DNA from: Bacilli bacterium
Lineage (GTDB): Bacteria; Bacillota_I; Bacilli_A; RF39; UBA660
Assembly (NCBI GenBank): GCA_017404385.1
Contig: JAFRCK010000017.1
Span: 3,419-67,418, forward strand
Direction: 5' to 3'
Length of the DNA: 64,000 nucleotides
The notes under the pieces are model-generated. The model did not search any database, was not told the DNA's origin, and saw only the letters and a program-made list of their open reading frames with translations. Below are positions 6,958 through 53,084 of the stretch, piece by piece (within the stretch, counting starts at the first letter, position 1; the number at the start of each line of letters is the position of its first letter). Position numbers and translations under genes: made by a program.

Positions 6958-7034
6958 GGCGATGTAGCTCAGTTGGCTAGAGCGTTCGGTTCATACCCGA
7001 AAGGTCGTGGGTTCGACCCCCTCCGTCGCTACCA
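6958..7034 (+). tRNA. tRNA-Met (anticodon CAT), elongator type
   Basis: 77-nt cloverleaf: acceptor GGCGATG/CGTCGCT, D-arm GCTC..GAGC, anticodon stem TTCGG/CCGAA with loop TTCATAC, T-arm GTGGG TTCGACC CCCTC, encoded CCA. Near-identical to Bacillus elongator tRNA-Met. tRNA-Ile(LAU) cannot be excluded from sequence alone. Confidence 0.85.
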
Positions 7035-15082: not shown

Positions 15083-16443
15083 GTAAAAAACATGTTTATA
15101 TGATTGGTATAGGTGGAATAAGTATGAGCGGAATAGCAGAAATACTTGTTAATTATGGCTATACTGTAAGTGGTTCTGATATGACTGAAAATGAAATGGT
15201 AAGGCATCTTGAAGAAGAAGGTATAAAAGTAAATATTGGTCAAGTTAGTGAAAATATAACAAATGATATAGATTTAGTTGTTTATACAGCTGCTATTAAA
15301 GATACTAACCCTGAACTAGTAAAAGCTAGAGAGTTAGGAATCGAATGCGTAGAAAGAGGTAAATTCTTAGGAGAATTAACTGAAAATTTTAAAGATTGCA
15401 TTGGAGTTGCTGGTACTCATGGAAAGACAACAACATCATCAATGGTTTCATGCGTATTTGTAGAAGCAGGTGTTGATCCATCAATTCAAATAGGAGCTAA
15501 TCTAACACAAATAGGTGGTAACTATAGAGTAGGTAAAAGTGATTACTTTATAATTGAAGCATGTGAATATATGGATAGTTTTCAAAACTTTAAACAAAGA
15601 AGTGCAATTATTACTAATATAGATAATGATCATTTAGATTATTTTAAAAATATAGATAATATTTCTAAATCATTTGAAAAATATGTATCTCATCTACCAG
15701 AAAATGGACTATTAGTTCTTAATATGGATAATGAAAGATGTTATGATTTAAGAAACTATACTAAAGCAAGTGTTATTACAGTTAGTGAAAATAATAAAGA
15801 AGCTGATTATAATGTTAAAAATATAGAATATGATGATAGAGGTTGTCCGTCTTATGACATTTACAAAAAAGATGAATTTGTTATAAGAGTTAAATTAAAT
15901 GTAAGAGGAGAACATAATATATTAAATTCACTTGAAGCCTTTGCATTATGTTCTTGGTATGGAATTGATAATGAAACAATTGTTAAAGGATTATCAAGTT
16001 TTACAGGAGCTAGTAGAAGAATGGAATATAAGGGTCAGTTTAATGGTGCAAATGTATATGATGATTATGGGCACCATCCTACAGAAATAGAGGCTACAGC
16101 GAATGCTATATTAAAAGAAAAACATAATGAAAGTTATGCAGTATTTGAAGCACATACATATAGTAGATTTTACGAACATGTTAATAGTTTTGCTAAATCT
16201 CTAACTAAATTTGATCATATAATAGTAATTGATATATACGCAGCTAGAGAAGAAAATATATATGGTGTTAAACCGGAAGACTTAGTTGATAAACTAGTTA
16301 AATTAGGTAAGGATGCTATTTATATAAGTGATTATGATGAAATAAAAAAATATTTAAAAGAAAGAGTAAAAGAGGGAGACTTAATTATAACATTAGGTGC
16401 AGGTAATGTTACTAAAGTAGCCTCTAAACTTGTGGAGGATTAA
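15079..16443 (+). CDS. murC: UDP-N-acetylmuramate--L-alanine ligase
   Basis: N-terminal IGIGGISMSGIAEIL, GVAGTHGKTTTSSM P-loop. ATGA overlap with murD. Confidence 0.85.
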   Translation: MSKKHVYMIGIGGISMSGIAEILVNYGYTVSGSDMTENEMVRHLEEEGIKVNIGQVSENITNDIDLVVYTAAIKDTNPELVKARELGIECVERGKFLGELTENFKDCIGVAGTHGKTTTSSMVSCVFVEAGVDPSIQIGANLTQIGGNYRVGKSDYFIIEACEYMDSFQNFKQRSAIITNIDNDHLDYFKNIDNISKSFEKYVSHLPENGLLVLNMDNERCYDLRNYTKASVITVSENNKEADYNVKNIEYDDRGCPSYDIYKKDEFVIRVKLNVRGEHNILNSLEAFALCSWYGIDNETIVKGLSSFTGASRRMEYKGQFNGANVYDDYGHHPTEIEATANAILKEKHNESYAVFEAHTYSRFYEHVNSFAKSLTKFDHIIVIDIYAAREENIYGVKPEDLVDKLVKLGKDAIYISDYDEIKKYLKERVKEGDLIITLGAGNVTKVASKLVED

Positions 16444-16444
16444 T

Positions 16445-17308
16445 ATGAAAAAATTATTTGGTGGAATAAATTTAACATGGAAAAAACTAATTGTTTTTTC
16501 CATACTTATAGCTATATATGTTGCAGTTATGATGATAATACCTATAACAAAAGATACTTCTTTTAGAGATATAGGAACTACATTTGAATGGTGGATATTA
16601 TTTGGAGTATTAATAATAGTAAATAGTAAATCTCCAGTAGATTCGATGTTAAAATGTTTTGTATTTTTCTTAATAAGTCAACCACTTATTTACTTATTAC
16701 AGGTACCATTTTATGATCAAGGATTTAAAATATTTGTTTATTATCCATATTGGTTTAAATGGACACTTGCAACAATACCTATGGGATTCATTGGTTATTA
16801 TATTAAAAGAAAAGATATTATTAGTGTATTAATACTATTACCTGCATTAGGTTTATTAGCATATCAAGGTATAGGTTTTTTATCAGCAACATTAGATAGT
16901 TTCCCATCTCATTTATTATCTACAATATTCTGTTTTGCATCAATTATATTTATAGCAATTGGAGTATTTGATAAGTGGTTATATAGATTAATTACAATAG
17001 GAATAATTGCAGTGAGTTCAGTTGGATTCTTAGTATATGAAGGTGCTTTTGATAAAAACTTTGAACAAGTATATCAATTAAATCAATACGATATTCAACT
17101 TACTGAAAAAGCTGAAGTAACAAGTTTTAGTGGTTCAACTAATGGTAGTGCTGAAATAGTAAGTAGAGAATATAATACAATTAAAATATCAGGTAAAGGC
17201 AATAATACTTATAATTTTACTATAGATGATGGTAATGGTAATAGTTATGATTTTAAATATTACTTTGATTCAAACACAAAAGAGATAAAATTAGAGTTAG
17301 TTAAATAA
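16445..17308 (+). CDS. polytopic membrane protein with C-terminal soluble domain, unknown function
   Basis: GGAGG RBS before ATG 16445. 6-7 TM helices then about 90-aa hydrophilic tail. Terminator 17316-17353 (12-bp perfect stem). Confidence 0.5.
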   Translation: MKKLFGGINLTWKKLIVFSILIAIYVAVMMIIPITKDTSFRDIGTTFEWWILFGVLIIVNSKSPVDSMLKCFVFFLISQPLIYLLQVPFYDQGFKIFVYYPYWFKWTLATIPMGFIGYYIKRKDIISVLILLPALGLLAYQGIGFLSATLDSFPSHLLSTIFCFASIIFIAIGVFDKWLYRLITIGIIAVSSVGFLVYEGAFDKNFEQVYQLNQYDIQLTEKAEVTSFSGSTNGSAEIVSREYNTIKISGKGNNTYNFTIDDGNGNSYDFKYYFDSNTKEIKLELVK

Positions 17309-17381
17309 AACATGTAAATAGAATATAGAAATATATTCTATTTCTTTTTTTTATGTTATAATGATACTAGGAGGGTAATAT

Positions 17382-17738
17382 ATGAATGTAGAGATATTAA
17401 CTAAAAATAAAATAGATGTAAACCATGGATTAGAGTTACTAGGTGATATGGATTTTTATAATGAAACTCTAGGTACTTTCTATGATAATATAGAAAAAAA
17501 TTTAAAAGATTTAAAGAAATTTAAAGAAAGTGATGATTTTGAAAACTATGGAATCTTATCACATTCAATTAAATCTGATTCTAAATATTTAGGATTTATG
17601 GATCTTGCTGAAATTGCCTTAAGTCACGAAATGGCTGGTAAAGGATCAGATAAAAAATTTATAGAGGAAAATTATGATTCTTTTGTAGAAGAAATAAATA
17701 GAATTGTAAGTGTAGTTAAGGAGTATTTAGGGAGGTAA
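17382..17738 (+). CDS. histidine phosphotransfer (HPt) domain protein
   Basis: HSIKSDSKYLGFMDLAEIALSHE matches the HPt H-x-x-K-G/S-x-S-x-x-L-G consensus. 118 aa. TGtTATAAT promoter 17354-17362. Confidence 0.55.
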   Translation: MNVEILTKNKIDVNHGLELLGDMDFYNETLGTFYDNIEKNLKDLKKFKESDDFENYGILSHSIKSDSKYLGFMDLAEIALSHEMAGKGSDKKFIEENYDSFVEEINRIVSVVKEYLGR

Positions 17739-17740
17739 TT

Positions 17741-18151
17741 ATGAATAATGGATTTAGCCCAATTATAAGTGAAAAGGCAATACTAGTTGTAGATGATAGT
17801 AATATTACAAGAAATCTAATAGATCATGTATATAAAGATAAATATAAAGTATTAATGGCAAATGATGGAAAAGGTGCAATGGATATAGTTGATGTTATGA
17901 AAGATTCTATTGTGGCTATTTTACTTGATTTAAATATGCCTGATGTTGATGGATTTGAAGTACTTGATTATTTTTTAGAAAATAAAATAATGGATACTAT
18001 CCCAGTATGTATAATAACTGGTGAAGATGCACCAGAAATAATAGGTAAAGTAAAAACTTACCCAGTAAGTGCAATCTTATTAAAACCATTTAGTACTGAA
18101 CAAATAAAAACTGTTGTTACTAAAGCTATGGAATTAAAAGGGATAAAGTAA
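17741..18151 (+). CDS. single-domain response regulator (CheY-like receiver)
   Basis: VVDDS acidic pocket, LLDLNMPDVDG phospho-Asp region, LLKPF conserved Lys. 3-nt gap to HPt gene. Terminator AAGCAA ttat TTGCTT + T9 at 18149-18174. Confidence 0.75.
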   Translation: MNNGFSPIISEKAILVVDDSNITRNLIDHVYKDKYKVLMANDGKGAMDIVDVMKDSIVAILLDLNMPDVDGFEVLDYFLENKIMDTIPVCIITGEDAPEIIGKVKTYPVSAILLKPFSTEQIKTVVTKAMELKGIK

Positions 18152-18218
18152 AGCAATTATTTGCTTTTTTTTTGCTTTTATGGTATAGTATTTTGCGTCA
18201 AAAAAGGGGTTGAAATAT

Positions 18219-19535
18219 ATGGCAGAATTGTCAAAAGAAAGGTTAGAATATCTATCAAGAGAATTAAAAAAGTTTAAAGACGGAATTCCTGTAAATGATT
18301 TGGCATTAAAAGTATTGGAAAAAAAGATTTCATCATTAACAAAAGAGTTTATTGATGAAGGAAATACACTTGCTTATACTACAAGTAGAAGAAAATCTCT
18401 AGAGAGCTTTATTGATAAACAAAATAGAAATAAAGAAAAAAATTTAAATATTGATTATGAAGATATGCACGATATTGTAGGAATTAGATTAGTTTGTTTA
18501 ACTTTAACTGATATGTATGAATATATTAAGTTATTAAGAAAAACTGATGAATTTGAAATTGTTGAAGAAAGAGATTATATATCTAATCCAAAGAAAAGTG
18601 GTTATAAAAGTTATCATATATTAGTTAAATATCCAGTAGTAATGGGTTCTAAAATAGAATTTATAAAAGCAGAAATCCAATTAAGAACTATATTTATGGA
18701 TATATTCGCAAGAGAGGAACATAAGATAAACTATAAAGGTGATTGTACTGAAGAAAATAAGAGAAAACTTGCAAGTTTAAGTAAGAAATTAGCGTATTAT
18801 GATTGGTCTTTAGATAATCAGTTTAAGGTTGAAAAAAAGATAAAAGAAAAAGAAAGTGAAGAAGAATTGGCACCATATAGAAGAGAATATGAAAAAGTAT
18901 CATATATATTCTATAGTGTGTTTGATAAAATCAAACCATTAATTGAAGAATCAATTAAAGATTTTAAAAATAAGGATGATGTACTACATTTTGTATACGG
19001 AATAAAACCAATTGAAAGTATTCGAAGAAAGATGATAAAAAGACATTTAGAATGTACAGCTGAAGATATGTTACAAGTTAGAGATATAGTTAGATATAAG
19101 GTTGTGTGTACTGATGAAAAAACAGCAAAGGAATATATATCAGAAATAATGAAAAAATTAGAAGAAAATCCACAAATAACAAATATTGTTACAAGTGATC
19201 GTATGGATAAACCAAAAGATTCTGGTTATAGAGGATATAAGATAAATGCAAGTTATTTAATGCCATTTGTAACTGGTGCTCCTGTAACATTTGAAATTCT
19301 TATAAGAACAATGTTTATGGATGCCTGGGCTTTACATAACGATGTAATTTTTACTGATGAAGAAGCGAAAGAAAAATATAAAGAGCCATTTAGTGGTTTA
19401 TCTGAAGCATTACACGATGCTGAATCTGCTTTGGAAATAATTAAATCAGGTAGTAAAGCTAATGCTAAAGAAAAAGAAATAAAGGTATTAGAATTAGTAA
19501 ATAAATATGATAAAAGTAAAAAAAATGAAGAATAA
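18219..19535 (+). CDS. tandem RelA/SpoT-type (small alarmone synthetase-like) nucleotidyltransferase domains
   Basis: Domain 1: RRKSLESFIDK, DIVGIR, PKKSGYKSYH, EIQLRTIFMDIFAREEHKINYK (full synthetase motif set). Domain 2: IRRKMIKR, DIVRYK, PKDSGYRGYK, EILIRTMFMDAWALH (G, H and Q positions substituted). Confidence 0.65.
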   Translation: MAELSKERLEYLSRELKKFKDGIPVNDLALKVLEKKISSLTKEFIDEGNTLAYTTSRRKSLESFIDKQNRNKEKNLNIDYEDMHDIVGIRLVCLTLTDMYEYIKLLRKTDEFEIVEERDYISNPKKSGYKSYHILVKYPVVMGSKIEFIKAEIQLRTIFMDIFAREEHKINYKGDCTEENKRKLASLSKKLAYYDWSLDNQFKVEKKIKEKESEEELAPYRREYEKVSYIFYSVFDKIKPLIEESIKDFKNKDDVLHFVYGIKPIESIRRKMIKRHLECTAEDMLQVRDIVRYKVVCTDEKTAKEYISEIMKKLEENPQITNIVTSDRMDKPKDSGYRGYKINASYLMPFVTGAPVTFEILIRTMFMDAWALHNDVIFTDEEAKEKYKEPFSGLSEALHDAESALEIIKSGSKANAKEKEIKVLELVNKYDKSKKNEE

Positions 19536-19621
19536 TGAAATGCACCCCTTGGAGTAGACATTAATAAAAAACGATTTTAAAAAATATGATAGAATACACT
19601 TCCGAAAGGAGGTGTTTTTCT

Positions 19622-19921
19622 ATGGCTTCAAAAGGACAAAAGTATGAAAAATATACTATAGAATTAACTATGGAAATATTAAGAAAACATAACGAAGAAG
19701 GAGTTCCAATAACAAGACTCGAAAAAGAATATAATATATCACAGAATACTATATATAATTGGAATAGAAAATATAGTTTACACCCTGAATTATATCCAGG
19801 TTTAGGGAAAAAACGTGGTAGGCTTAAAGAATCAAATTTAACAAAAGAAGATTGGAAAGAAAGATATGAAATATTAAAAAAATACCAGGCCTTCCTCAAG
19901 GCACAACGAGAGAAAAAGTAA
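19622..19921 (+). CDS. IS3-family transposase OrfA (HTH)
   Basis: GGAGG RBS. Helix-turn-helix N-terminal protein. Ends after A7 slippery run (19876-19882). Confidence 0.8.
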   Translation: MASKGQKYEKYTIELTMEILRKHNEEGVPITRLEKEYNISQNTIYNWNRKYSLHPELYPGLGKKRGRLKESNLTKEDWKERYEILKKYQAFLKAQREKK

Positions 19922-20757
19922 CATTTATAAATTTATATAAAAATAATTATAAACTTACTAACATGTGTGCCGTACTTAATATAAGTCCTAAAACCTATTA
20001 TAAATATAGAAATAAGGAAGATCCAGATTATTATGATTATTTAATGATAAAAGAAATATTTGATAATTCTAAGGGTACATATGGATATCGTAGGATTGTT
20101 GATGGCCTACTCCAAAAGTATGGTGTAGTTATGAATGGAAAAAAGGTATTAAGAGTAATGAAAAAATATAATTTAATGGCTGAATATATAAGGAAATCAA
20201 GGAAGAAAAATAAAAATGAGAGAATTGAAGATAATGTTAAACCAAATCTATTGAATAGAAATTTTACTACTGATGCACCAAATAAAGTGTGGGATACAGA
20301 TGTAACATATCTTATATTTAAAGGTTCAAGAGCATATTTATCAACAATAATAATAGATTTATATGATAGACATGTAGTTGCATATAAAATATCTAAACAT
20401 AATGATAATAAATTAGTTATAGATACTTTAAATGAAGCTTTATCAAAAGAAAAAGATGTACATGGATTGATCATTCACAGTGATCAGGGATTCCAATATA
20501 CATCTTTTGAGTACAAAGTTATTTGTGAATCAAACGGAATACAAATTTCTATGGCTAGAAAAGGAAATCCAATTGATGACTCTCCTATAGAGAGTTGGCA
20601 TCCACTTCTTAAGAAAGAAACTTTGTACAACAATAATATTACATCTTTACAAGAATATATTCAACTTGTAGAAGAATGGATATTATTTTATAACACAAAT
20701 AGATTAAAGTCAAAAGTTAAGAAAAAGAGAAAAACTTATACAAAAAGAGAAAAGTAA
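19880..20757 (+). CDS. IS3-family transposase OrfB (DDE integrase core), expressed as OrfAB by -1 frameshift
   Basis: -1 frame open from the A_AAA_AAA heptamer through HSDQGFQYTS (rve domain) to 20757. Track ORF 19963 is the internal Met. Confidence 0.75.
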
Positions 20758-20912
20758 TTTTTTCTCTTTTTAATATAATCGCTTTTTATTAATGTCTACT
20801 ATTTAGGGTTCACATCATAATTCTTCATTTTTTTATTCCCAAAATTTCACATAATTTTTACATAATGATTTTTATTTTTTTTATTATGATATTTAACAAG
20901 AGGAGGGATATT

Positions 20913-21611
20913 ATGGCTATAACCATAATAGATAGAATGGAACAAAAATACTTTATTAGTTTTGATAAGTATAAAGAGCTTATGGATAGAATAGAGGATA
21001 AACTCGTTAAAGATAAGTATTTTGATGAAAGGATATATAATATTTATTTTGATAATGATGAATATGAGTTCATAGTTAAATCTCTTGATAAACCTTTATA
21101 TAAAGAAAAGGTTAGATTAAGAAGTTATTCTGAAGCTAAAGAAGGAATTAATGTATTTTTAGAAATAAAGAAGAAGTTTAAAGGACATGGTAATAAAAGA
21201 AGAGTTGTTATTGATTATAATGATGCGATAAATTATATTAATAATAAAGTTATACCTAATACCAATAAACAAATTATGAGTGAACTAGATTATACATTTA
21301 AGAAGAATAATTTAAAACCTAAAATTAGTTTAACATATGATAGATTATCTTATGCATTTAAAGAAGATGAATCATATAGAGTAACATTTGATACAAATAT
21401 TAGATATAGTAATAAAAAACTAGATCTAGTTAATATAGATGATGAAGATTCACTATTTAATGATGGATATATTATGGAAGTTAAAACTTTAAAGGGATAT
21501 CCCAATTGGTTTTCTAAAGTATTAAATGAACTAAAAATATATCCTACTTCATATTCAAAAGTAGGTGAAGCTTATAAAAAATTAAAAGAAAGGAATGAAT
21601 TATATGTTTAA
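20913..21611 (+). CDS. VTC/CYTH-like triphosphate-tunnel domain protein (putative)
   Basis: MEQKYFISF..., VRLRSY, FLEIKKKFK, GNKRRV alternating basic beta-strand pattern. AGGAGG RBS before ATG 20913. Confidence 0.4.
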   Translation: MAITIIDRMEQKYFISFDKYKELMDRIEDKLVKDKYFDERIYNIYFDNDEYEFIVKSLDKPLYKEKVRLRSYSEAKEGINVFLEIKKKFKGHGNKRRVVIDYNDAINYINNKVIPNTNKQIMSELDYTFKKNNLKPKISLTYDRLSYAFKEDESYRVTFDTNIRYSNKKLDLVNIDDEDSLFNDGYIMEVKTLKGYPNWFSKVLNELKIYPTSYSKVGEAYKKLKERNELYV

Positions 21612-22266
21612 TAGTATTATAGGTGATAGTTTAACTTTTTCCTCAGCAAGTATATGTATTATTACTTCTATTATATTAGGTATTTTTATATCATTTGTAC
21701 ATATGAAAACTACTAAATATAATAAAAACTTTATAGTATCCTTATCAGTTATGCCATTAATAGTAAGTATGATTATTATTATGGTAAATGGTAATTTAGG
21801 AACATCCGTTGCGATTGTAGGTGCTTTTTCTCTAATTAGATTTAGAAGTATACCAGGTAATTCAAAAGAAATAATATCAGTATTTCTAGCTATGTCTATT
21901 GGTCTTGCAATAGGTATGGGACAAGTAGTATTTGCTTCTTTAGTAACACTAGTAACTGGTTTAATACTATTATTATTAACTTATTCTAAATTTGGTAATG
22001 AAGAAACAAAATATAAAACACTTGATATACTTATTCCAGAAGATTTAGATTATGATACAGTATTTGATAAAGTATTAAAAAAATATACTGAAGTATTTGA
22101 AATAATAAAAGTAAAAACATCTAATATGGGTAGTTTATATGAATTGAAGTATAAAATAGAAATGAAAAAAAATATTTCTGAAAAGAAATTTATAGATGAA
22201 TTAAGAGTTTTAAATGGAAATTTAAAAATAAGTATAAGTAAAGCTGAAACGGAGGAGATGTTATAG
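21604..22266 (+). CDS. membrane protein, DUF4956-like (N-terminal 4 TM + C-terminal soluble domain)
   Basis: Architecture and position downstream of a VTC-like gene. Not motif-verified. Confidence 0.35.
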   Translation: MFNSIIGDSLTFSSASICIITSIILGIFISFVHMKTTKYNKNFIVSLSVMPLIVSMIIIMVNGNLGTSVAIVGAFSLIRFRSIPGNSKEIISVFLAMSIGLAIGMGQVVFASLVTLVTGLILLLLTYSKFGNEETKYKTLDILIPEDLDYDTVFDKVLKKYTEVFEIIKVKTSNMGSLYELKYKIEMKKNISEKKFIDELRVLNGNLKISISKAETEEML

Positions 22267-24103: not shown

Positions 24104-24931
24104 ATGAAATTAAAAGTAAATAATTTTAATTTAAAAGATACTGTTACTTGTGGTCAAATATTTAGATTTGAAGAAGAAGTAGATAATTCTTATACAGTTA
24201 TTCTTTCTGATAGAGTAATTAATATAAAACTAGTGGGAAATGAATTAGTAGTAAAATCATCTGATGAAAATAATTTAGAAAAAGTAATAAGAAATTATTT
24301 TGATTTAGACTATGATTATGAAATAATAAATAAAGAATTGTTAAAAATAGATTCAAGTAATAAAAGTATAATTGATTCATGTAAAGGTTTAAAAATGATT
24401 AATGAACCTATATTTGAAACAATAATTAGTTATATAATTTCTTCTAATAATAGAGTTCCACAAATTAAAAAAGCATTAGATAATATATCTAAAACTTATG
24501 GAAAAAAAGTAGTTTTTAATAATAAAGAATATTATTTGTTTCCAAGTTTAGAAGAGATAAGTAATTGTGATATTAATACACTTAGAAATTGCAAGGTAGG
24601 TTTTAGGGATAAATACATTTATGAATTTATTAATAAAGTAAAGAATAATGAATTTGATATTAATAGAATTATAGAAATGAATAGTGAAGATGCACTAGAA
24701 TACTTAAAAACTCTTAATGGAGTAGGAGATAAAGTGGCTTCATGTATTTTATTATTTGCTTATCATAGATTTGATGTATTTCCAATTGATACATGGGTAA
24801 AAAAATATATGAAAGATAAGTATAATATTGAAGGAGTTAATAAAATACAAGATTTTGTGTATAAAAAATATAGAAATTATTCAGGTATAGTTATTCAATA
24901 TATGTTTCATTATAAAAGAAATAAGAATTAA
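24104..24931 (+). CDS. 8-oxoguanine DNA glycosylase (Ogg, HhH-GPD superfamily)
   Basis: OGG_N-like LKDTVTCGQIFRFEE and HhH-GPD LKTLNGVGDKVASCILLFAYHRFDVFPIDTWV with catalytic K and D. Confidence 0.7.
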   Translation: MKLKVNNFNLKDTVTCGQIFRFEEEVDNSYTVILSDRVINIKLVGNELVVKSSDENNLEKVIRNYFDLDYDYEIINKELLKIDSSNKSIIDSCKGLKMINEPIFETIISYIISSNNRVPQIKKALDNISKTYGKKVVFNNKEYYLFPSLEEISNCDINTLRNCKVGFRDKYIYEFINKVKNNEFDINRIIEMNSEDALEYLKTLNGVGDKVASCILLFAYHRFDVFPIDTWVKKYMKDKYNIEGVNKIQDFVYKKYRNYSGIVIQYMFHYKRNKN

Positions 24932-26001
24932 TTCTTATTTTTTTTAATTTTTATATTTGAAATTAATAATAATATTATTATGGGAATAAAAAATATGAAT
25001 ATAAAGTATTTCATCATAAAATTGGAACCTATGGTCGTATTATTAAATAATACTAATGAAGTTATAAAACTAATAATTATTATAAAACCAAATATTTTTT
25101 TATTATATTTATTAATATAATTAAGATATTCTTTAATAAAGAATAATGATAAAACAGTTGATATAAATATTGAGTACAACCATTCAATTGTAGATAAATT
25201 TTCAATATGTTGAATAAAGTCAAAGAAATTTACTTTTTTCATTAGAGTATATTCTGGATAACTTAAAATTCTAGCTAAATCTATGCCAAATACACCTATT
25301 ATAAAAATAAATAATAATAGAAAATTAATAATAGTTATTATATAAAAAATAATTATAGTTTTTGATAGTTTATTTGACTCATATATTTCATTTTTTGGTA
25401 TTACTAATAACATAAATGTAGGTGAAACAAAATATGATGTAAATAATATTGAATCTTTAATTATTTTAATTATAGGGGTATTAAACCAAGGTTTTAAATT
25501 ATTAATTTCTATAGAAGAATATAAATTTAGAATTGAAAAGAGAATTATAAAAACAGTTACTAAAAAAACAGATATTGATACCTTAGATATGGTTTTCATA
25601 TTTAATGATGCACACCATACAGCTGGTATTAAGAATAATAAAATTATAATAAAACTAGGTGTAGAATCTAAATATTTATTTTGCACATAAGTGTTAATAC
25701 TCCAAAGAGAATATATAAAATAAAATGTAAATATAATTACTAAAAAAACATTAATGATTTTACCATAAGATCTAAATAATTTATCGTTCTTTTTAAATAG
25801 ATTTAAATCTTTTTCAAAATTAAAATATCTAATAATAAAGAATAGTATTATCATAGATAATAATCCACCTAATAATATAGAATAAATACTACCATTACCA
25901 GATCCATTTAATAATTGATTTAACCCAGTATGTAGAAACATAGTCTGTGATATAAAAAATATAATTGAAGAAAAACCAATTCTACTTATTTTAGTGTTCA
26001 T
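24928..26001 (-). CDS. spore germinant receptor B subunit (GerAB/GerKB family permease)
   Basis: 10-TM APC-like protein, third gene of gerA-type operon. AAAGGAG RBS. Confidence 0.65.
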   Translation of the reverse strand: MNTKISRIGFSSIIFFISQTMFLHTGLNQLLNGSGNGSIYSILLGGLLSMIILFFIIRYFNFEKDLNLFKKNDKLFRSYGKIINVFLVIIFTFYFIYSLWSINTYVQNKYLDSTPSFIIILLFLIPAVWCASLNMKTISKVSISVFLVTVFIILFSILNLYSSIEINNLKPWFNTPIIKIIKDSILFTSYFVSPTFMLLVIPKNEIYESNKLSKTIIIFYIITIINFLLLFIFIIGVFGIDLARILSYPEYTLMKKVNFFDFIQHIENLSTIEWLYSIFISTVLSLFFIKEYLNYINKYNKKIFGFIIIISFITSLVLFNNTTIGSNFMMKYFIFIFFIPIIILLLISNIKIKKNKN

Positions 26002-27121
26002 ATTTTTCTCCTTTACTTGAATTACTTATTTCACCTTTTCTAGAAATATTAATATTTATTTTTGTTTCTAAATTATATTTTTCATTATTATAATTTGGAT
26101 AATCTAAATAAATAATTCTTTTTAGTCCTAAGAACTCACTATCTGTTTTTACATCTAAAACTTTGTTTATATAATCTTTTATTTTATTATTAGTTAATTT
26201 TTCTAATTCTGTAATTGTTTCTTCATTTATTTCTTTTTTACAATTGTATTCATTTATATTAGCATTTCCTTCTATATAAAAATTAATAATGAATTTATTA
26301 TTACTTTTATTAACATTTGATTTTGTTTTGCTACTAAGAATTGAGATAGATGCATAATTATTATCATCACATTTAACTGGTACAATCATTTGATCAATCT
26401 TATTCATAAGAAAATTATAGCCAATTGTTTCATCATTATCTAAATATTTTTCTAGTTTTCCATCTTTAGTAATAGCGATGTTGCTAAGTTCAATTCTTGT
26501 TTTAGGACTTGTCGTTTCACTATTATTAATAGTTGTTCCTTTATTATTAAAGTTTTCTACTTCAATTACGGATACCACTGGATCTATATATTTTTTTAAA
26601 TAAAAAGATAGAAATTCATCTAATTTAGAGGAATAGGTTAATGCACTTTCAATAGAAGAGTTTTCAATTGCGTTAGAAACATAATCAGCTGGAGTTGATC
26701 CATTTGTTAATACTTTTATTACATCTAAAGCCTGAATTCCTTTTGATATTGTGATAGTGAACTCGTCTTTTATTTCAGGTAATCTTTGAAATAAATCGAT
26801 TACATTAATAATCCCTTCTTTAGCAATTTCTTCAGATAAAACAAGTTTACTTAAATGTCCACCATATAGCTTTTTGTCAGCTGTATTAGTCATTTTCCTT
26901 AATGCTTCTTCTATAGTTGAACCGGTAGATTCAAACACAATTACTTTACTAGATTCAGATTCTTTTTCATCTTTTATATTCATAACTTGGGCACCAATTA
27001 AATATTTATCTTCTTTTTTATCAATAGAGATTGAAGAAACTATTCCAAGTTTATTTAATTCTTTATAGTTATAACAACCTGTTAATAATAATATAAATAT
27101 TATTGTTATTATCTTTTTCAT
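25991..27121 (-). CDS. spore germinant receptor C subunit lipoprotein (GerAC/GerKC family)
   Basis: Signal peptide + lipobox LLTGC. 376 aa. AAAGGAG RBS. Confidence 0.65.
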   Translation of the reverse strand: MKKIITIIFILLLTGCYNYKELNKLGIVSSISIDKKEDKYLIGAQVMNIKDEKESESSKVIVFESTGSTIEEALRKMTNTADKKLYGGHLSKLVLSEEIAKEGIINVIDLFQRLPEIKDEFTITISKGIQALDVIKVLTNGSTPADYVSNAIENSSIESALTYSSKLDEFLSFYLKKYIDPVVSVIEVENFNNKGTTINNSETTSPKTRIELSNIAITKDGKLEKYLDNDETIGYNFLMNKIDQMIVPVKCDDNNYASISILSSKTKSNVNKSNNKFIINFYIEGNANINEYNCKKEINEETITELEKLTNNKIKDYINKVLDVKTDSEFLGLKRIIYLDYPNYNNEKYNLETKININISRKGEISNSSKGEKYEH

Positions 27122-27122
27122 A

Positions 27123-28508
27123 TTATCTCCTTTTAGTATTTCTTGTTAATATTGAATTTCTTTTGTTTAATTTATATCTTTTAGTTAATATAAAATTATT
27201 CTTTTGTTCATCAAAGTTAAATGGTGCATATGGAACTGTATAATCAAATCCAAAACTATCTATAGAACAAACTCTAATTAGGAATAACAAAGAAGCAATA
27301 AATATTCCATATAGACCAACAAAGGCACCTAATAATAAAAATATTAGTTTCCATAGTCTAATTGTATTAACAACATCATTATCATTAAATAAAAATGAAG
27401 CTACTGAAGATATAGCTATTATGATTATCATAATAGGTGAAATAATTCCAGCATTAACAGCTGCATCTCCAAGTACTAAGGCACCGACAATCGACATTGA
27501 TGAACCAACGACAAATGGAACTCTGGTATCAGCTTCTCTTAGTATTTCAAAAGTGAACCATAAAAGAATTGCTTCAACAATTGATGGAAAAGGAACACCT
27601 TCACGCTGCATAGAAAAATTTATTAATAGAGATGTAGGTAATGTTTCTTGGTTAAATGTTGTTAAAGCAATATAAATACCAGGGGTAATTATCGCTACTA
27701 AAAAAGCAACTATTCTAATAATTCTTGTAATAGATACGTTTTTATTATTCTGATAATAGTCATCAATATTCTTTATATAATCAGAAAAGAAGGATGGTAT
27801 AATTAACACTTGTGGTGAATTCTCTACAACAATTGAACATCTTCCTTCCATCATACAAAATGATACAAAGTCAGGTCTTTCTGTCATTAAGTTAGTTGGG
27901 AACATATAAGACTTATCAGTTAGATTATCAGCTATATAATTACTATTAGCAACATAATCTAGACTCATTGTTTTTAATTTTTTTTCAATTTTATTAATTA
28001 AATCTTTATTAACAATGTCATCAACATATAAAAGAGATACTTTTGTTTTACTCTTTGTTCCAATAATAAATTCTTTAATAATCAATTTCTTTGATCTAAT
28101 TCTTTTTCGAATTAAACCTAAATTATTTTGATAATTTTCTGAAAATGAATCTTTAGGTCCTTTTATTACTTTTTCATTACTAGCTTCATTTATTCCAGAA
28201 TCAAGACTATACTTTGTTTCAAAAGCTATGTAATCATTATTGATGTTAATAATTGTAAAACCAGAGTATAAACAAAATTCTAATTCCTTATTATCTTTTA
28301 AATCTATAAAGTTATTAATTGGTAACTTGTTTTTAATGTCATTAATATTATCTAATTCATTATTTAATATTGGTTTTAAAATAAAATCGTTTATATCATT
28401 TGATGAACAAAGTGATTCAAAATATATGATATTAATAGTATTATTATTTATAATTATTTCTCTTTTTTTTAAATCGGGATTATTATTAATTAATTCATTT
28501 ATATTCAT
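27123..28508 (-). CDS. spore germinant receptor A subunit (GerAA/GerKA family)
   Basis: Soluble N-domain + C-terminal 4-5 TM. ATG (complement of 28506-28508) with AAAGGAG RBS. Track ORF extends to TTG at 28538. Confidence 0.65.
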   Translation of the reverse strand: MNINELINNNPDLKKREIIINNNTINIIYFESLCSSNDINDFILKPILNNELDNINDIKNKLPINNFIDLKDNKELEFCLYSGFTIININNDYIAFETKYSLDSGINEASNEKVIKGPKDSFSENYQNNLGLIRKRIRSKKLIIKEFIIGTKSKTKVSLLYVDDIVNKDLINKIEKKLKTMSLDYVANSNYIADNLTDKSYMFPTNLMTERPDFVSFCMMEGRCSIVVENSPQVLIIPSFFSDYIKNIDDYYQNNKNVSITRIIRIVAFLVAIITPGIYIALTTFNQETLPTSLLINFSMQREGVPFPSIVEAILLWFTFEILREADTRVPFVVGSSMSIVGALVLGDAAVNAGIISPIMIIIIAISSVASFLFNDNDVVNTIRLWKLIFLLLGAFVGLYGIFIASLLFLIRVCSIDSFGFDYTVPYAPFNFDEQKNNFILTKRYKLNKRNSILTRNTKRR

Positions 28509-28577
28509 AAAAAGCTCCTTTATAATTAGTTTGTACAATTTTTAATAAAATATAGTATAATAACACTAGGTGTTTTT

Positions 28578-44395: not shown

Positions 44396-44444
44396 AAAAC
44401 TATTGAAAAAATATTAAAAATATAATATAATTTAAATTGTTTAG

Positions 44445-44635
44445 TGATGAAGAAAAGTAGTAGTAAAAGAATACTATTTTAGAGAGTTAACGGTTGGTGA
44501 AAGTTAATTAGTACAATTTTATGAACTTGTTTTGGAACTAAAAACGTGTAATTACGATATAAATAGAGTGCATAGATTCCTATGAAGTAAGGTGGTACCG
44601 CTAGATATAGTCCTTACATTATAGGAATTTTTTTG
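44445..44635 (+). promoter_or_regulatory. T-box riboswitch leader (Leu-type by context) with terminator
   Basis: AGAGAG...GGTTGGTG stem I elements (44481-). T-box core AAGGTGGTACCGC (44589-44602). Terminator ATTCCTATGAAGTAAGG/CCTTACATTATAGGAAT + T8 (44576-44635). TATAAT at about 44421. Confidence 0.65.
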
Positions 44636-44656: not shown

Positions 44657-45052
44657 ATGAATTTTTTAAAATATTTTTTGATTTACGTTGCTTTTTTTAT
44701 AATTACTTATTTTGTATATTATTGGTTTTCTGTTAGACCAGTTGTTAATAATTATAAAAAGAAAAAGAAAGGTAAGAAAATAAAAAAAGAAAGAGAATTA
44801 CCTACTGAAATTAAATTATTAAAAAGTTATTATAAAGTTGATGTAGATAAAATAGGTGAAGTTAGAACATTAAGAATTGTTAATTTTGTTAATGCGGCTT
44901 TTTTATCATTACTAGTGATGATAGTTTTACCATTTAAAGAAGTTTGGCTTAAATTAATAATACTATTTGTTTTAATATTACCTTCTATATGGGTAGTGTA
45001 TTATTTTTTAGCAAAGTTTTTAAAGTATTTAGAGAGGAAGAGTGAAAGATAA
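44657..45052 (+). CDS. small 3-TM membrane protein between T-box and leuS
   Basis: AAGGGAGA RBS. Stop overlaps leuS ATG (TAATG). Confidence 0.45.
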   Translation: MNFLKYFLIYVAFFIITYFVYYWFSVRPVVNNYKKKKKGKKIKKERELPTEIKLLKSYYKVDVDKIGEVRTLRIVNFVNAAFLSLLVMIVLPFKEVWLKLIILFVLILPSIWVVYYFLAKFLKYLERKSER

Positions 45053-47466
45053 TGTATAATTTCAAGGAAGTAGAAAAAAAATGGATAGATTATTGGGATA
45101 AAAATAAAACATTTAAAACTGATACAACTGATTTTAGCAAACCTAAGTATTATGCTTTAGATATGTTTCCTTATCCATCCGGTGTGGGATTACACGCAGG
45201 ACACGTTGAAGGGTATACAGCAACTGATATAGTAGCAAGAATGAAAAGAATGCAAGGTTTTAATGTTCTTCATCCAATTGGATATGATTCATTTGGTTTA
45301 CCAGCAGAACAATTTGCAATTAAAACAGGTAAACATCCTGATGGATTTACACAAAAGAACATTGAATATTTTACTAAACAGTTAAAGACAATTGGTTTAT
45401 CATTTGATTGGGATAGATGTATATCTTCTCATGAACCATCATATTATAAATGGACACAATGGATATTTAAAAGATTATATGAGGATGGACTTGCTAAACA
45501 AGTAGATATGCCTGTTAACTGGTGTGAAGAACTTGGTACAGTTCTTGCAAATGATGAAGTTATTGATGGTAAAAGTGAAAGAGGCGGATATCCTGTAGTT
45601 CGTAAAAATATGAAACAATGGGTTATTGATATGCCTAAATATGCAGAAGAATTACTTTCTGGATTAGATAATCTTGATTGGCCAGAATCAACTAAAGAAA
45701 TGCAAAGAAATTGGATTGGTAAATCAACAGGTGTAGAAGTAGATTTTGATATAGTAGGTGGAGGTAAGTTCTCTATTTATACTACATGTATTGAAACTAT
45801 ATATGGAATAACATTTATGGTACTAGCGCCAGAAAATAAATTAGTTGATGAATTAAAAGAAAGAATTACTAACTTCGATGAGGTAGAAAAGTATAGAGAA
45901 GAAACAGCTAAAAAATCTGATTTTGATAGAACAGAAATGAATAAAGATAAATCAGGTGTTAAACTAGAAGGTGTTATGGCTATCAATCCAGTTAATAATA
46001 AAGAAGTACCTATTTATCTTGGAGACTTTGTACTTGCTAGTTATGGAACTGGAGCTGTTATGGCAGTTCCAAGTCATGATCAAAGAGATTATGAATACGC
46101 TACTAAGTATAATATTCCTATGATTCAAGTAATTGATGGAAAAGATACAAAAGAATGTGCATTTGAAAAACAAGATTATCTTGGTAAAGGATGTAAATTA
46201 ATTAATAGTGAAGAATTTACTGGTTTAACTGTAGAAGAAGCTAAAGAAGCAATAACTGATAAATTAGTAAAAATGGGTAAAGGTAGAAAACAAGTTAACT
46301 ATAGAATTAGAGAATGGATATTTGCAAGACAAAGATATTGGGGAGAACCAATACCTATAGTTAACTTTGAAGATGGTACTCAAGAAGCATTAGATGATAG
46401 TAAATTACCATTAATATTGCCAGAACTTTCTGATTATAAAGGAAGAAATGGAAAAGCACCACTTGAAAGTGCAACTGAATGGAAAAATGTTACTATAAAT
46501 GGTAAAAAAGGTACTTTAGAAACATCTACTATGCCTGGTTCTGCTGCATCATCATGGTATTTCTTAAGATATATAGATCCTAAAAATGATAATGAATTTG
46601 GTGATAAGAAATTGATTGATCATTGGATGCCAGTAGATTTATATGTTGGTGGACCAGAACATGCTGTAGGACATTTGTTATATTCAAGAATGTGGAATGA
46701 GTATTTATACGATAAAGGATTAGTTGGAGTAAAAGAACCATTTACTAAATTAGTTCATCAAGGAATGATATTAGGAAGTAATGGTTTAAAGATGGGAAAA
46801 AGATATCCAGAATATGCTGTTGATCCAATTGATGTTGCTAGTGAATATGGAGCTGATACATTAAGACTTTATGAAATGTTTATGGGACCATTAGAAGCTG
46901 AAAAACCATGGAGTGAAGAAGGAGTTAATGGTGCTAAAAAGTTTATTGATAAAGTATATAGAATGTTTATGGAAGAATCAAAGATAAAAGAAGAAAAGAA
47001 TTCTAACTTAGATAAAATATATAATCAGACAGTTAAAAAAGTAACTGAAGATTATGAAAAATTATCATTTAATACAGCTATATCTCAATTAATGATATTC
47101 TTAAATGCAGTACAAAAAGAAGACGTATTCCCTAAAGAATATGCTGAAGGATTTATAAAATTGTTAAATCCTATCGCACCTTTTGTTACTGAAGAAATAT
47201 GGAATAAGCTAGGTCATAATGATACAATATCCTATGAACCATGGCCAACATTTGATGAATCAAAAATGATTGAGGATACATTTGAAATGGTAGTTCAAGT
47301 AAATGGAAAAGTAAGAGGTAAAATAGAAGTTGATTCTAATACTTCAGAAGAAAATATGAAAAAACTAGCTAAAGAAGTAGAAAATGTAAAGAACTATTTA
47401 GATGGACACGAAATAATAAAAGAAATTGTTATCCCTAAAAAACTAGTTAGTTTTGTTATTAAATAA
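45052..47466 (+). CDS. leuS: leucyl-tRNA synthetase
   Basis: HIGH region PYPSGVGLHAGHVEGY. Editing and anticodon-binding regions collinear with LeuRS. 804 aa. Terminator 47464-47497. Confidence 0.9.
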   Translation: MYNFKEVEKKWIDYWDKNKTFKTDTTDFSKPKYYALDMFPYPSGVGLHAGHVEGYTATDIVARMKRMQGFNVLHPIGYDSFGLPAEQFAIKTGKHPDGFTQKNIEYFTKQLKTIGLSFDWDRCISSHEPSYYKWTQWIFKRLYEDGLAKQVDMPVNWCEELGTVLANDEVIDGKSERGGYPVVRKNMKQWVIDMPKYAEELLSGLDNLDWPESTKEMQRNWIGKSTGVEVDFDIVGGGKFSIYTTCIETIYGITFMVLAPENKLVDELKERITNFDEVEKYREETAKKSDFDRTEMNKDKSGVKLEGVMAINPVNNKEVPIYLGDFVLASYGTGAVMAVPSHDQRDYEYATKYNIPMIQVIDGKDTKECAFEKQDYLGKGCKLINSEEFTGLTVEEAKEAITDKLVKMGKGRKQVNYRIREWIFARQRYWGEPIPIVNFEDGTQEALDDSKLPLILPELSDYKGRNGKAPLESATEWKNVTINGKKGTLETSTMPGSAASSWYFLRYIDPKNDNEFGDKKLIDHWMPVDLYVGGPEHAVGHLLYSRMWNEYLYDKGLVGVKEPFTKLVHQGMILGSNGLKMGKRYPEYAVDPIDVASEYGADTLRLYEMFMGPLEAEKPWSEEGVNGAKKFIDKVYRMFMEESKIKEEKNSNLDKIYNQTVKKVTEDYEKLSFNTAISQLMIFLNAVQKEDVFPKEYAEGFIKLLNPIAPFVTEEIWNKLGHNDTISYEPWPTFDESKMIEDTFEMVVQVNGKVRGKIEVDSNTSEENMKKLAKEVENVKNYLDGHEIIKEIVIPKKLVSFVIK

Positions 47467-50764: not shown

Positions 50765-50874
50765 TTTTTTATTTACAAATTAAAAATCATATTGTATAAT
50801 TTAATTAGGATATGATAGTAAACAAAGTCAGTCCTATATATTAATAAATAGTCGAAGGGAGGTGAATGGTTAAA

Positions 50875-51543
50875 ATGGAATTTCCAAAAGGTGGATTCGT
50901 AACAGAAGTTTCACAAATAAGAACATTAGCAAGACAAATTAATAAAGATGTTTGCACAGCATATAAACAAGCAAATTTAGCAAAAGCTGATTGGCAAGGT
51001 GATCAATATGATGAAATGGTTAAAATTTTCCAAACTTACAAATCAAAAATTGATAGTATGTTGGAATTAGTTGTTACAAATATTCCAACATCATTAGAGA
51101 CAATTTCAAATATTGGTATAGCAACTTATCAATCAAAATATGGATCACAAGTTTCGCCAGATACTGCTGCTGTAGAAACTCCAACTGCCCTTGAAACACT
51201 TACAGAATCAGGTAGAGGTGGATCATGGCTTAGTGGAGATTATGCTGACTTATCAATTGTTCGACCATATATAACTGAAGTTAATACATCTATAGAATCA
51301 GCAAAAAAAGCTTTAAAAGACATTAATGGTAAAGTACAAGGCCTTACATCTTGGACAGGTCCAGATGCAACAAAATATAAAGAACAATTAAGCACTTTAG
51401 CAGGTGACTTAGATAAGAATTTCACTACTATGAATGAGAATTTTGAAACTTTAGCAACAGAAGCTGTAAATAAACTTAAAGCACAGCAAGATGCTGGTTC
51501 TAAAATTGCAGGCGGTGGTAGTGCAGGAGCAAGTAATATATAA
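50875..51543 (+). CDS. tandem WXG100-like protein (two W-x-G motifs)
   Basis: ADWQGDQYDEM (50992-51000) and TSWTGPDATKY (51352-51360), each centred in a roughly 100-aa helical half. GGGAGGTGA RBS. Confidence 0.55.
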   Translation: MEFPKGGFVTEVSQIRTLARQINKDVCTAYKQANLAKADWQGDQYDEMVKIFQTYKSKIDSMLELVVTNIPTSLETISNIGIATYQSKYGSQVSPDTAAVETPTALETLTESGRGGSWLSGDYADLSIVRPYITEVNTSIESAKKALKDINGKVQGLTSWTGPDATKYKEQLSTLAGDLDKNFTTMNENFETLATEAVNKLKAQQDAGSKIAGGGSAGASNI

Positions 51544-51547
51544 TAAT

Positions 51548-51612
51548 AAAGATCTTTGCATACGCAAAGTCTTTAGTCAGAGAGTATTATTTGATAATAG
51601 TACTTTCTGACT
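51548..51612 (+). other. pair of adjacent strong stem-loops without U-tract
   Basis: AAAGATCTTTGC atac GCAAAGTCTTT and AGTCAGAGAGTA(14-nt loop)TACTTTCTGACT. Confidence 0.5.
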
Positions 51613-51633
51613 AGAGGAAAGGGGACTTTTTTC

Positions 51634-51921
51634 ATGGAATTAAGTGTATCAGGATTAAAAAAAGATGCAACTAAAATTGAAAATTTTAATAAGAATCTTG
51701 ATAATGATTATTTAAAAATACTTAGTGCACTTTCAACATTAGAAAAAATATGGACAGGTCCAAGAGCTGAAAGTTTTTATGATGCAATAAAAAGTATATA
51801 TTTAAAAGAATTAAAAGAAGTTATTAAAAGTTTAGATGATTATAGAAATTATGTGAATAGTGTTCCAAATGTGTATCAAACTCTAGATAGAAGTTATACA
51901 AATAAAAAAATTGATGTGTAG
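51634..51921 (+). CDS. WXG100 family protein (EsxA-like)
   Basis: 95 aa with central WTGPRAESF. GAGGAAAGGGGA RBS. Confidence 0.6.
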   Translation: MELSVSGLKKDATKIENFNKNLDNDYLKILSALSTLEKIWTGPRAESFYDAIKSIYLKELKEVIKSLDDYRNYVNSVPNVYQTLDRSYTNKKIDV

Positions 51922-51930
51922 GTGATTTAT

Positions 51931-52245
51931 ATGATATTTAACGAAGAAGAATTTCCAAATTCCATTCAGGCTTTTAATAAAATATATCAATCAATGGTAC
52001 GTACTAAGGAAAGCATGGAAACAATATTAAAAGATGTAAAGAATAATTGGCAAAGTAGTGCCTCAGATCAATTAATTATAAATATTAGAAATTCAATAAA
52101 AAAATTAGATACATATATAAATCAGGTTAGCAAAATTAAAGACTATATGGATGAAACTTTAGATCTATATTTAACTAATCAAGCAACTGGTATTAAAATA
52201 GCTGACGAAGCTCTTAATTCATCTGGTTCTATCAAGGAGGAATAA
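51931..52245 (+). CDS. WXG100-like small helical protein (WQS variant)
   Basis: 104 aa. NNWQSSASDQ central motif. GTAGGTGA RBS. Confidence 0.4.
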   Translation: MIFNEEEFPNSIQAFNKIYQSMVRTKESMETILKDVKNNWQSSASDQLIINIRNSIKKLDTYINQVSKIKDYMDETLDLYLTNQATGIKIADEALNSSGSIKEE

Positions 52246-52247
52246 TA

Positions 52248-52712
52248 ATGGCTTATGAGAATGTTGATGTAAATAAGGCAAGAATGGCTGTTAATAGCTG
52301 TTTAAATTCTTTACGTCATGGTGCTTGTGACAATTTTTTATCTGGATTAAGAAATAGTAATGAATGGGTTGCTGATAGTAAGTCAACCTTTTTGACTGGC
52401 ATAGATACTTTAGCAAATACTAGATATGTTGAATTAAAAAACTATTTAAATAAGTGTTTAGTGGCACTAGATAACATAGAAAAATATCAAAATTTACAGA
52501 ATCAAACAGCAACATATAATTCACAAATACAAGGTAAAAGAACAGAATTAAAAAATCAAAAAGAAAGATATAACAAAATGGATGATAAAACAACTACAGA
52601 AGCTAAAAATACCAAGAAAAAAATAGATACTTTAGAATCAGATATTAAGTCTTTAAGTTCTAAGGTGTCAAGTAATAGTACTGGTATGAGTGGTATTCAT
52701 TTAGATATTTAA
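52248..52712 (+). CDS. small helical protein, possible divergent WXG/T7SS-associated
   Basis: 154 aa. NEWVADSKSTF. AAGGAGG RBS. Terminator 52722-52753. Confidence 0.35.
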   Translation: MAYENVDVNKARMAVNSCLNSLRHGACDNFLSGLRNSNEWVADSKSTFLTGIDTLANTRYVELKNYLNKCLVALDNIEKYQNLQNQTATYNSQIQGKRTELKNQKERYNKMDDKTTTEAKNTKKKIDTLESDIKSLSSKVSSNSTGMSGIHLDI

Positions 52713-52760
52713 AATAATGCCAAAAAGTTATAAATAGTTATAACTTTTTTTTTATACTCA

Positions 52761-52790
52761 TTGACATAGATTAACAAAAAATAGTATAAT
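52761..52790 (+). promoter_or_regulatory. sigma-A promoter TTGACA-18-TATAAT for yukD-essC
   Basis: Consensus hexamers at 52761-52766 and 52785-52790. Confidence 0.5.
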
Positions 52791-52821
52791 TTTATATAGA
52801 TAATAATAAGGGATGGTTAGT

Positions 52822-53061
52822 ATGAATAATAAGATTTTAGTGGTAATATATTCACCATTAGTAGATAAAGAATTCGATGTGTTTATTCCTATAAATAAGA
52901 AGGTAGGAACTATAAAAAATATCATTTCTCAATCTATTAATTTTTTAGACTTGGGTTCAGAACATATTATAATTAATAAAGAAGATAATAAAATAGTAGA
53001 TGATAATGTCTACGTAGTTAATTCTGGAATAAAGAATGGGGCTAGATTAATACTTATATAA
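52822..53061 (+). CDS. YukD/EsaB-like ubiquitin-fold T7SS protein
   Basis: About 80 aa. ILVVIYSPLVDKEFDVFIPINKKVGTIKNII beta-grasp-like pattern. Immediately upstream of essC. Confidence 0.55.
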   Translation: MNNKILVVIYSPLVDKEFDVFIPINKKVGTIKNIISQSINFLDLGSEHIIINKEDNKIVDDNVYVVNSGIKNGARLILI

Positions 53062-53084
53062 AAGAATAAAGGGTGGGTGAAATT

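Follow-up and report, generated by a model that had tools for sequence, protein, structure and literature searches.

Organisation of the locus

The window, that is, the whole 64 kb stretch of DNA analysed here, carries on its forward strand two short adjoining ORFs, 17382-17738 (118 aa) and 17741-18151 (136 aa), which were recovered by ORF calling at the same positions as in an earlier interpretation made from the letters alone (the sequence-only reading). The first is described here as a stand-alone HPt protein with H61 as the predicted phosphohistidine, and the second as a single-domain CheY-like receiver (REC) with the acidic residues D18/D19, the phospho-acceptor D63, and K115. The two ORFs are separated by 2 nt, not by the 3 nt reported earlier: the TAA stop codon of the HPt gene (17736-17738) is followed by 'tt' and then by the ATG of the receiver gene at 17741. 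This 2-nt spacing is kept across the close relatives L006-L019. A ribosome-binding site, AGGAGGG (17369..17375, + strand), was read 6 nt 5' of the HPt start codon, and that of the receiver gene, GGGAGG (17730..17735, + strand), lies within the 3' end of the HPt gene. Together with the 2-nt gap, this position predicts translational coupling of the two genes.

On the left, the pair is bounded by a hairpin followed by a T-run (17316..17352, + strand), which is located 3' of the upstream ORF 16430-17308 and marks the end of the upstream murD-murC-292-aa transcription unit. Its 12-bp stem has a folding energy of -10 kcal/mol (z -3.2) and is followed by 8 U. A promoter-like extended -10 element, TGTTATAAT (17354..17362, + strand), was assigned to the HPt-REC unit by consensus match only; it is not listed by the consensus promoter scan and has no good -35 element. 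On the right, a weak terminator-like hairpin, AAAGCAA/TTGCTTT, with a T-run (18150..18173, + strand) forms the boundary; the hairpin spans 18150-18167, the T-run extends to 18173, and the fold (-9.1 kcal/mol, z -1.7) was equalled by 13 of 200 shuffled sequences. Neither boundary terminator is listed by the consensus terminator scan, and both stems contain fewer than three G-C pairs. In most of the closest relatives, the receiver stop codon is directly followed by a T-run and a TGnTAtAAT-like -10 element, irrespective of which gene comes next. The terminator that had been placed after the receiver gene is confirmed as a hairpin with a recurrent T-run, although the hairpin itself is weak and was missed by the consensus scan. 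Given the hairpins at both boundaries and the promoter-like elements, the HPt-REC pair looks like a self-contained bicistronic unit, in agreement with its earlier description as one tight unit.

The genes murD and murC lie just 5' of the unit in the window. Between murC and the HPt gene there is an ORF for a 292-aa membrane protein (16430-17308, + strand) with about five predicted transmembrane helices. This protein was considered as a possible sensor and rejected: it has no Pfam or NCBIfam match, and, being confined to the window and its nearest relative L011, it lies outside the conserved unit. In other close relatives, which are without this gene, murC is immediately 5' of the HPt gene.

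Elsewhere in the window, an Rfam scan detected only a T-box leader (44438-44618, + strand; 98 bits), located 5' of a small membrane ORF and a leucyl-tRNA synthetase-like gene (45052-47466), and one tRNA gene (6958-7031, + strand), with no rRNA and nothing near the HPt-REC pair. A type VII secretion-like cluster (50866-57707, + strand) was read by eye, in which several small helical ORFs of the WXG100-like type precede an EssC/FtsK-type ATPase of 1544 aa.

Identity of the HPt protein

The motif quoted by the sequence-only reading, HSIKSDSKYLGFMDLAEIALSHE, corresponds to residues 61-83 of the 118-aa ORF. It opens with H61-S-I-K-S-D-S-K-Y-L-G-F and is of the HxxKG/S type with the phosphorylatable His conserved; among 26 aligned homologues, neither H61 nor the stretch K64-S-D-S-K-Y-L-G-F72 varies. 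Against the Pfam family Hpt (PF01627), the 118-aa protein scored 23.8 bits (E 5e-5), which is 0.8 bit short of the gathering cut-off of 24.6, and two relatives with 51-52% identity to it scored 30.2-30.3 bits, over the cut-off. A search of 5.8 billion proteins yielded 256 relatives of the window HPt, many of which have a precomputed PF01627 match. When the alignment of 26 relatives was used as a profile, the H61 motif was paired with HFLKGSSATLGF of a solved fungal HPt.

The AlphaFold2 model of the 118-aa protein (pLDDT 96.9, pTM 0.88) is all-helical, in keeping with the antiparallel helical bundle of about 115-120 residues that characterises the HPt family, with H61 in the helix 53-70. When this model was compared with the PDB by Foldseek, every one of the 34 best matches was an HPt domain or protein. 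Ranked first is 3myf, the HPt of a Shewanella hybrid kinase (TM 0.83-0.86, rmsd 1.9 A), and further matches include HptB, plant AHPs, Ypd1, BarA, and ArcB; identity of the window protein to the solved HPt proteins among its fold matches is 13-19%. Comparison with close relatives gave dN/dS values of 0.02-0.19 for the HPt gene.

The sequence-only reading had proposed HMM searches with PF01627 and the receiver family PF00072 as a check, and had named failure of the 118-aa ORF to score as HPt as the outcome that would speak against its proposal. The receiver search succeeded, as described below, whereas the window HPt itself fell literally under the cut-off. Its identity is settled by the other evidence: on the basis of the homologue scores, the invariant H61 motif, the predicted fold, and the precomputed family matches of its relatives, the 118-aa protein is a true HPt, as had been proposed, with phosphotransfer as its predicted activity.

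A library-wide profile search with the HPt family returned 162 clusters with E<=1e-30, many of them representing the C-terminal ends of proteins of 700-1000 aa or the N-terminal parts of proteins of about 250 aa. The HPt subfamily is large, modular, and shuffled.

The receiver

The 136-aa protein matched Response_reg (PF00072) with 61.7 bits (cut-off 30.2) over residues 14-126 of 136, and no further significant domain family was found in it with Pfam or NCBIfam. D18, D19, D63, and K115 of the active site are invariant, and the T/S of the IITGE motif is conserved, in an alignment with 14 relatives, CheY, and Spo0F. The earlier assignment of this ORF as a CheY-like receiver is thereby borne out. 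Its best solved relatives are CheY (45.1 bits), Spo0F (44.8 bits), and Thermotoga RR468 (44.7 bits), and it is 32% identical to Spo0F and 29% identical to CheY. A special kinship with Spo0F was considered and set aside as unsupported, the similarity being generic by both bit scores and identities; judged from its sequence, the receiver is a complete member of the single-domain class without assignment to any specific family. The dN/dS values of the receiver gene against close relatives are 0.06-0.32, so that both genes of the pair, with ratios well below 1, are under purifying selection.

Neighbour-joining analysis placed the window-clade receivers as the sister group of receivers from three-gene operons composed of a hybrid histidine kinase, an HPt, and a receiver (L033, L034, L060, L065, and L086). 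A small DUF4870-like membrane protein of 113-137 aa is encoded 3' of the receiver in these operons, whose receivers are the closest to that of the window. Its gene follows the receiver immediately in L033 (6797-7150), L065 (6783-7124), and L086 (6782-7129); in L034 and L060, one gene intervenes, and the gene for the membrane protein lies about 1.38 kb past the HPt start. No homologue of it was found in the 64 kb window.

Arrangements in related species

Eighty species-representative loci with 81 HPt copies were compared, their ORFs being labelled by phmmer with the window proteins and a Pfam-verified hybrid kinase. The HPt is fused to a hybrid kinase or encoded immediately after one in 44 of the 81 copies: it is the C-terminal domain of a HisKA-HATPase-REC-HPt protein in 17 and lies immediately 3' of a separate hybrid kinase gene in 27. 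The kinases of these relatives contain HisKA, HATPase_c, and Response_reg domains by Pfam. A receiver follows the HPt or is fused to it in about 43 of the 81 copies. Short single-domain receivers come after the HPt in 26 copies and proteins of about 235 aa with a C-terminal receiver in 12, and five copies are HPt-REC fusions, two of which are also immediately 3' of a hybrid kinase gene. The pair had been regarded as isolated and hence noteworthy, a view that is not supported, since the same HPt family is fused or adjacent to a kinase in more than half of the copies. In the window and the ten closest species (L011-L020), the arrangement is an HPt gene, a gap of 2-4 nt, and a short receiver gene, with no kinase within 6 kb on either side. 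In L011-L020, the pair stays intact while the gene upstream of it changes (murC or unrelated ORFs of 168-629 aa), and both ORFs are uninterrupted in the eleven genomes of the window clade.

Several other arrangements were observed. In four of the 81 copies (L035, L053, L056, and L075), a single HPt gene is located between two different hybrid kinases, of which the upstream one is of a multi-pass membrane type and the downstream one, of about 725 aa, is predicted to have 2 or 3 transmembrane segments, of which two overlap, and a long cytoplasmic part. In L021 (6795-8432), L023 (6796-8436), and L039 (6758-8434), the gene after HPt and REC encodes a PAS-REC-HD_5 (HD-GYP-like) protein with a length of about 545 aa. 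The REC of this protein resembles the window receiver (E 9e-24 to about 1e-23), and the protein is a possible second acceptor for the HPt. A conserved cluster, U271-U229-HPt, is found in L001 (6487-8357), L027, L028, L031, L040, L046, L062, and L077, often followed by the protein of about 235 aa, which joins an uncharacterised N-terminal extension of 105 aa to a receiver. In L001-L004, this cluster is placed right after spoIVB. Neither U271 nor U229 has a significant Pfam match, U271 showing only a faint GNAT-like one.

The kinase gene and the host lineage

Searches of all ORFs of the 64 kb window by phmmer with the core and the N-terminus of a hybrid kinase revealed no HisKA/HATPase core (best E 0.014, 7.5 bits), and a search with the receiver of the hybrid kinase revealed no second receiver. 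The window ORFs of at least 100 aa were also read by eye for a kinase, and nothing was found. The earlier statement that no kinase is encoded within several kb can thus be extended to the full window. Likewise, no kinase or other receiver lies within 6 kb on either side of the pair in any of the ten closest species. The kinase part of L022, the closest fused kinase relative, was also compared with 5.8 billion proteins; all 8000 scored candidates had E <= 1e-20, and none of the best 120 of these 8000 matches was on a contig with a window-clade HPt. The kinase of the window clade may lie outside these best 120.

The 80 related loci all come from metagenome-assembled genomes (MAGs) of uncultured gut organisms, most of them labelled Bacilli and some Tenericutes, Erysipelotrichaceae, or Bacillales. 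The closest relative of the window HPt, with 98% identity, is from a 'Bacilli bacterium' of sheep ileum. One locus (L033) belongs to Clostridium sp. CAG:433, a name that corresponds to the GTDB family CAG-433 of the order RF39 (PMC8035907). The sequence-only reading had started from the premise that Clostridia generally lack a relay of the Spo0F/Spo0B type, their orphan kinases phosphorylating Spo0A directly. Because the relatives are labelled mostly Bacilli and CAG:433 is placed in RF39, this premise is without support here.

Proposed phosphorelay and alternative readings

The pair is probably an ordinary part of a hybrid-kinase phosphorelay that is common in related uncultured gut Bacilli, and only the kinase gene is missing from its vicinity. 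The preferred reading, to which we give a probability of roughly 0.7, is that it supplies the HPt and the final receiver of a His-Asp-His-Asp relay, the hybrid kinase of this relay having its gene at another place in the genome. A membrane-bound hybrid kinase of the HisKA-HATPase-REC type, with roughly 5-7 transmembrane helices in its sensor part, would autophosphorylate and then phosphorylate its own receiver domain. His61 of the stand-alone HPt would accept the phosphoryl group next, and Asp63 of the single-domain receiver, whose gene begins 2 nt after that of the HPt, would receive it in turn. As this receiver is without an output domain, it would have to work through another protein that it binds, or else serve as a sink or branch for phosphate; no output partner is identifiable. 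We infer that this genome encodes a cognate hybrid kinase, that phosphoryl groups flow in the direction given, and that the receiver is the terminal acceptor. Since no kinase is found near the pair in the window or in the ten closest species, the partner kinase of the window clade is assumed rather than seen.

In a variant of this reading, the receiver would serve as a phosphate sink or competitor, the true output being an unlinked regulator that is also fed by the HPt. Branched flow from the HPt is suggested by the PAS-REC-HD_5 protein that follows HPt-REC in L021, L023, and L039 and by the tandem pair of HPt-REC fusions in some species (L080). Set against this, the window contains no such output regulator, and the strong conservation of the receiver and its constant predicted co-transcription with the HPt gene fit a dedicated partner equally well. 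We consider this variant unlikely.

A relay like that of Spo0F and Spo0B would place the two proteins in the opposite order, an ordinary kinase phosphorylating the receiver, from which the HPt would pass the phosphoryl group to Spo0A or another output regulator. The window does contain a gerA-type germination operon (24928-28538), Spo0F ranks with the best matches of the receiver among solved structures, and in one distant subclade the HPt gene is found two genes past spoIVB (Peptidase_S55), in a region where spo0A is located in Bacillus. The Spo0F match is, however, level with those of CheY and RR468, which makes the similarity generic, and neither of the two ORFs that come after spoIVB in L001 is Spo0A or matches Response_reg. 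The ORFs of 271 and 229 aa that separate spoIVB from HPt in L001-L004 were examined as candidates for Spo0A or a kinase and rejected, being without receiver, HisKA, or HATPase domains by Pfam. No linkage to spo0A was seen in any of 90 loci. The His carrier is predicted by its model to be a monomeric HPt bundle and not a fold of the Spo0B type, and there is no Spo0B match among the Pfam hits of the 118-aa protein or its 50 best fold matches listed. The kinases of the sister operons are hybrids with a receiver of their own, which places the stand-alone receiver after the HPt. An analogy with Spo0F/Spo0B accordingly has no support here, and a sporulation relay of this kind is regarded as quite improbable.

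A third alternative concerns the small alarmone synthetase (SAS) gene that follows the pair (18219-19535, + strand; the likely start is the ATG at 18219 and not the TTG at 18210). If the receiver controlled this enzyme, the phosphorelay would be tied to (p)ppGpp synthesis, and in the window, L008-L011, L013, and L016 the SAS gene does come immediately after the receiver gene. It is nevertheless missing from this position in L006, L007, L012, L014, L015, and L017-L020; among the ten closest species representatives, it follows the pair in three (L011, L013, and L016) and is not there in seven. The T-run and a promoter-like -10 element, TGGTATAGT, lie between the receiver gene and the SAS gene, no SAS gene was found beside any HPt outside the window subclade (80 loci), and no REC-SAS fusion was seen. 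Since most of the ten closest species lack the SAS gene at this place, the link is positional, which is how it had been judged originally, and control of the SAS by the receiver appears highly improbable.

The SAS protein itself consists of two RelA_SpoT-like halves in tandem. The N-terminal half is RelP/YwaC-like (114 bits to 6fgk) with intact motifs. The C-terminal half has 32% identity to it (E 2e-12) and carries DIVRYK, GYRGYK, and EILIRT in place of the canonical motifs DxxGxR, GYRSxH, and EIQxRT; by these changes, it may be a pseudo-synthetase domain. The same form of about 450 aa is present in L008, L013, and L016. In the window, the SAS gene is separated from a VTC-domain/DUF4956 gene pair (20865-22266) by an IS3-family-like element (19586-20757, + strand) with orfA (111 aa) and orfB (264 aa, with the look of a DDE-type integrase), which is absent from this place in L008 and L013; a strong hairpin (19589-19622) overlaps the start of orfA (19586).

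That the pair is a decaying, now functionless remnant left after loss of its kinase would agree with the lack of a kinase in the 64 kb but is extremely unlikely in view of the low dN/dS values of both genes (0.02-0.19 for HPt and 0.06-0.32 for REC), the invariance of all catalytic residues, and the uninterrupted ORFs in all eleven clade genomes.

A possible lipid link of the kinases, and significance

The sensor part of the hybrid kinases in the relatives has roughly 5-7 transmembrane helices. Directly 5' of these kinases, and on the same strand, there is a gene for an acyl-CoA/ACP-synthetase-like (AMP-binding) protein, a PlsC-type acyltransferase, or both, and some of these genes are fused to encode Aas-like proteins of 790-830 aa. 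Such a linkage was counted in 37 of 47 kinase loci and in 0 of 33 kinase-free loci, these being raw counts irrespective of shared ancestry. The lipid genes linked to kinases occur within L022-L090, for example in L034 (2232-5930), L057 (217-4324), and L053 (806-5985). The recurrent linkage of the kinase to acyl-activation and acyltransferase genes suggests a lipid-related input. We offer tentatively, and with the odds clearly against it, the more specific proposal that the pair forms the output side of a relay peculiar to this lineage, by which gut Bacilli with reduced genomes would sense their membrane-lipid or fatty-acid status. Provided that the linkage reflects function, the bare receiver would act on a target in lipid uptake or remodelling, and the window clade would have relocated its HPt-REC genes away from the kinase.

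For annotation, the result shows that a sub-threshold 'hypothetical' protein of 118 aa is a true HPt. Relays of hybrid kinases and HPt proteins are widespread in uncultured gut lineages labelled Bacilli, Tenericutes, and Erysipelotrichaceae. A census of two-component systems had already recorded stand-alone HPt proteins for Firmicutes and Tenericutes and put the share of hybrid kinases among the two-component proteins of Firmicutes at less than 1% (PMC4558063). The three modules, which are fused, adjacent, or dispersed among the relatives, form a natural series for the study of domain fission and fusion and of partner specificity, and the linkage of the kinase to genes of fatty-acid activation and acyl transfer is a testable lead to the signal. 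The pair has no bearing on the initiation of sporulation in Clostridia.

Comparison with known systems

The window HPt resembles LuxU and HptB in being a stand-alone protein of about 115-120 aa whose phosphate comes from hybrid kinases that are unlinked or several in number, a supply that is predicted in the present case. In the Vibrio relay, LuxN, LuxQ, and CqsS pass phosphate through LuxU to LuxO, and HptB is a free HPt of P. aeruginosa. The window protein matched both HptB (7c1i) and LuxU (1y6d) in sequence or fold, and the LuxU-like layout of many kinases for one HPt is found in the relatives L035, L053, L056, and L075. In contrast to these systems, the acceptor in the window is a bare receiver without a DNA-binding or enzymatic output, and the host belongs to a low-GC Gram-positive lineage. 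The relatives in which the HPt is the C-terminal domain of a HisKA-HATPase-REC-HPt protein (17 of 81 copies) share the design of ArcB, BarA, TorS, and the Shewanella protein 3myf, whereas the HPt of the window is a separate gene and its kinase is unlinked.

The Spo0F-Spo0B-Spo0A relay of Bacillus is similar in being a four-step relay of a Firmicute with a single-domain receiver and a separate His-phosphotransferase. Spo0B, however, is a dimeric HisKA-like phosphotransferase, built of a helical hairpin and a C-terminal alpha/beta domain, and not an HPt bundle, and the gene order and hybrid kinases of the relatives imply that the receiver acts after the His carrier and not before it.

The logic of hybrid kinase, free HPt, and receiver is also that of the Sln1-Ypd1-Ssk1 and AHK-AHP-ARR pathways. 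The structures of Ypd1, AHP, and fungal HPt proteins are strong fold matches of the window HPt, and the type-A ARRs of plants contain little beyond a receiver domain. Compared with these eukaryotic relays, the window pair is bacterial, operon-encoded, and much smaller, and homology with them is proposed only at the level of the shared HPt and receiver superfamilies.
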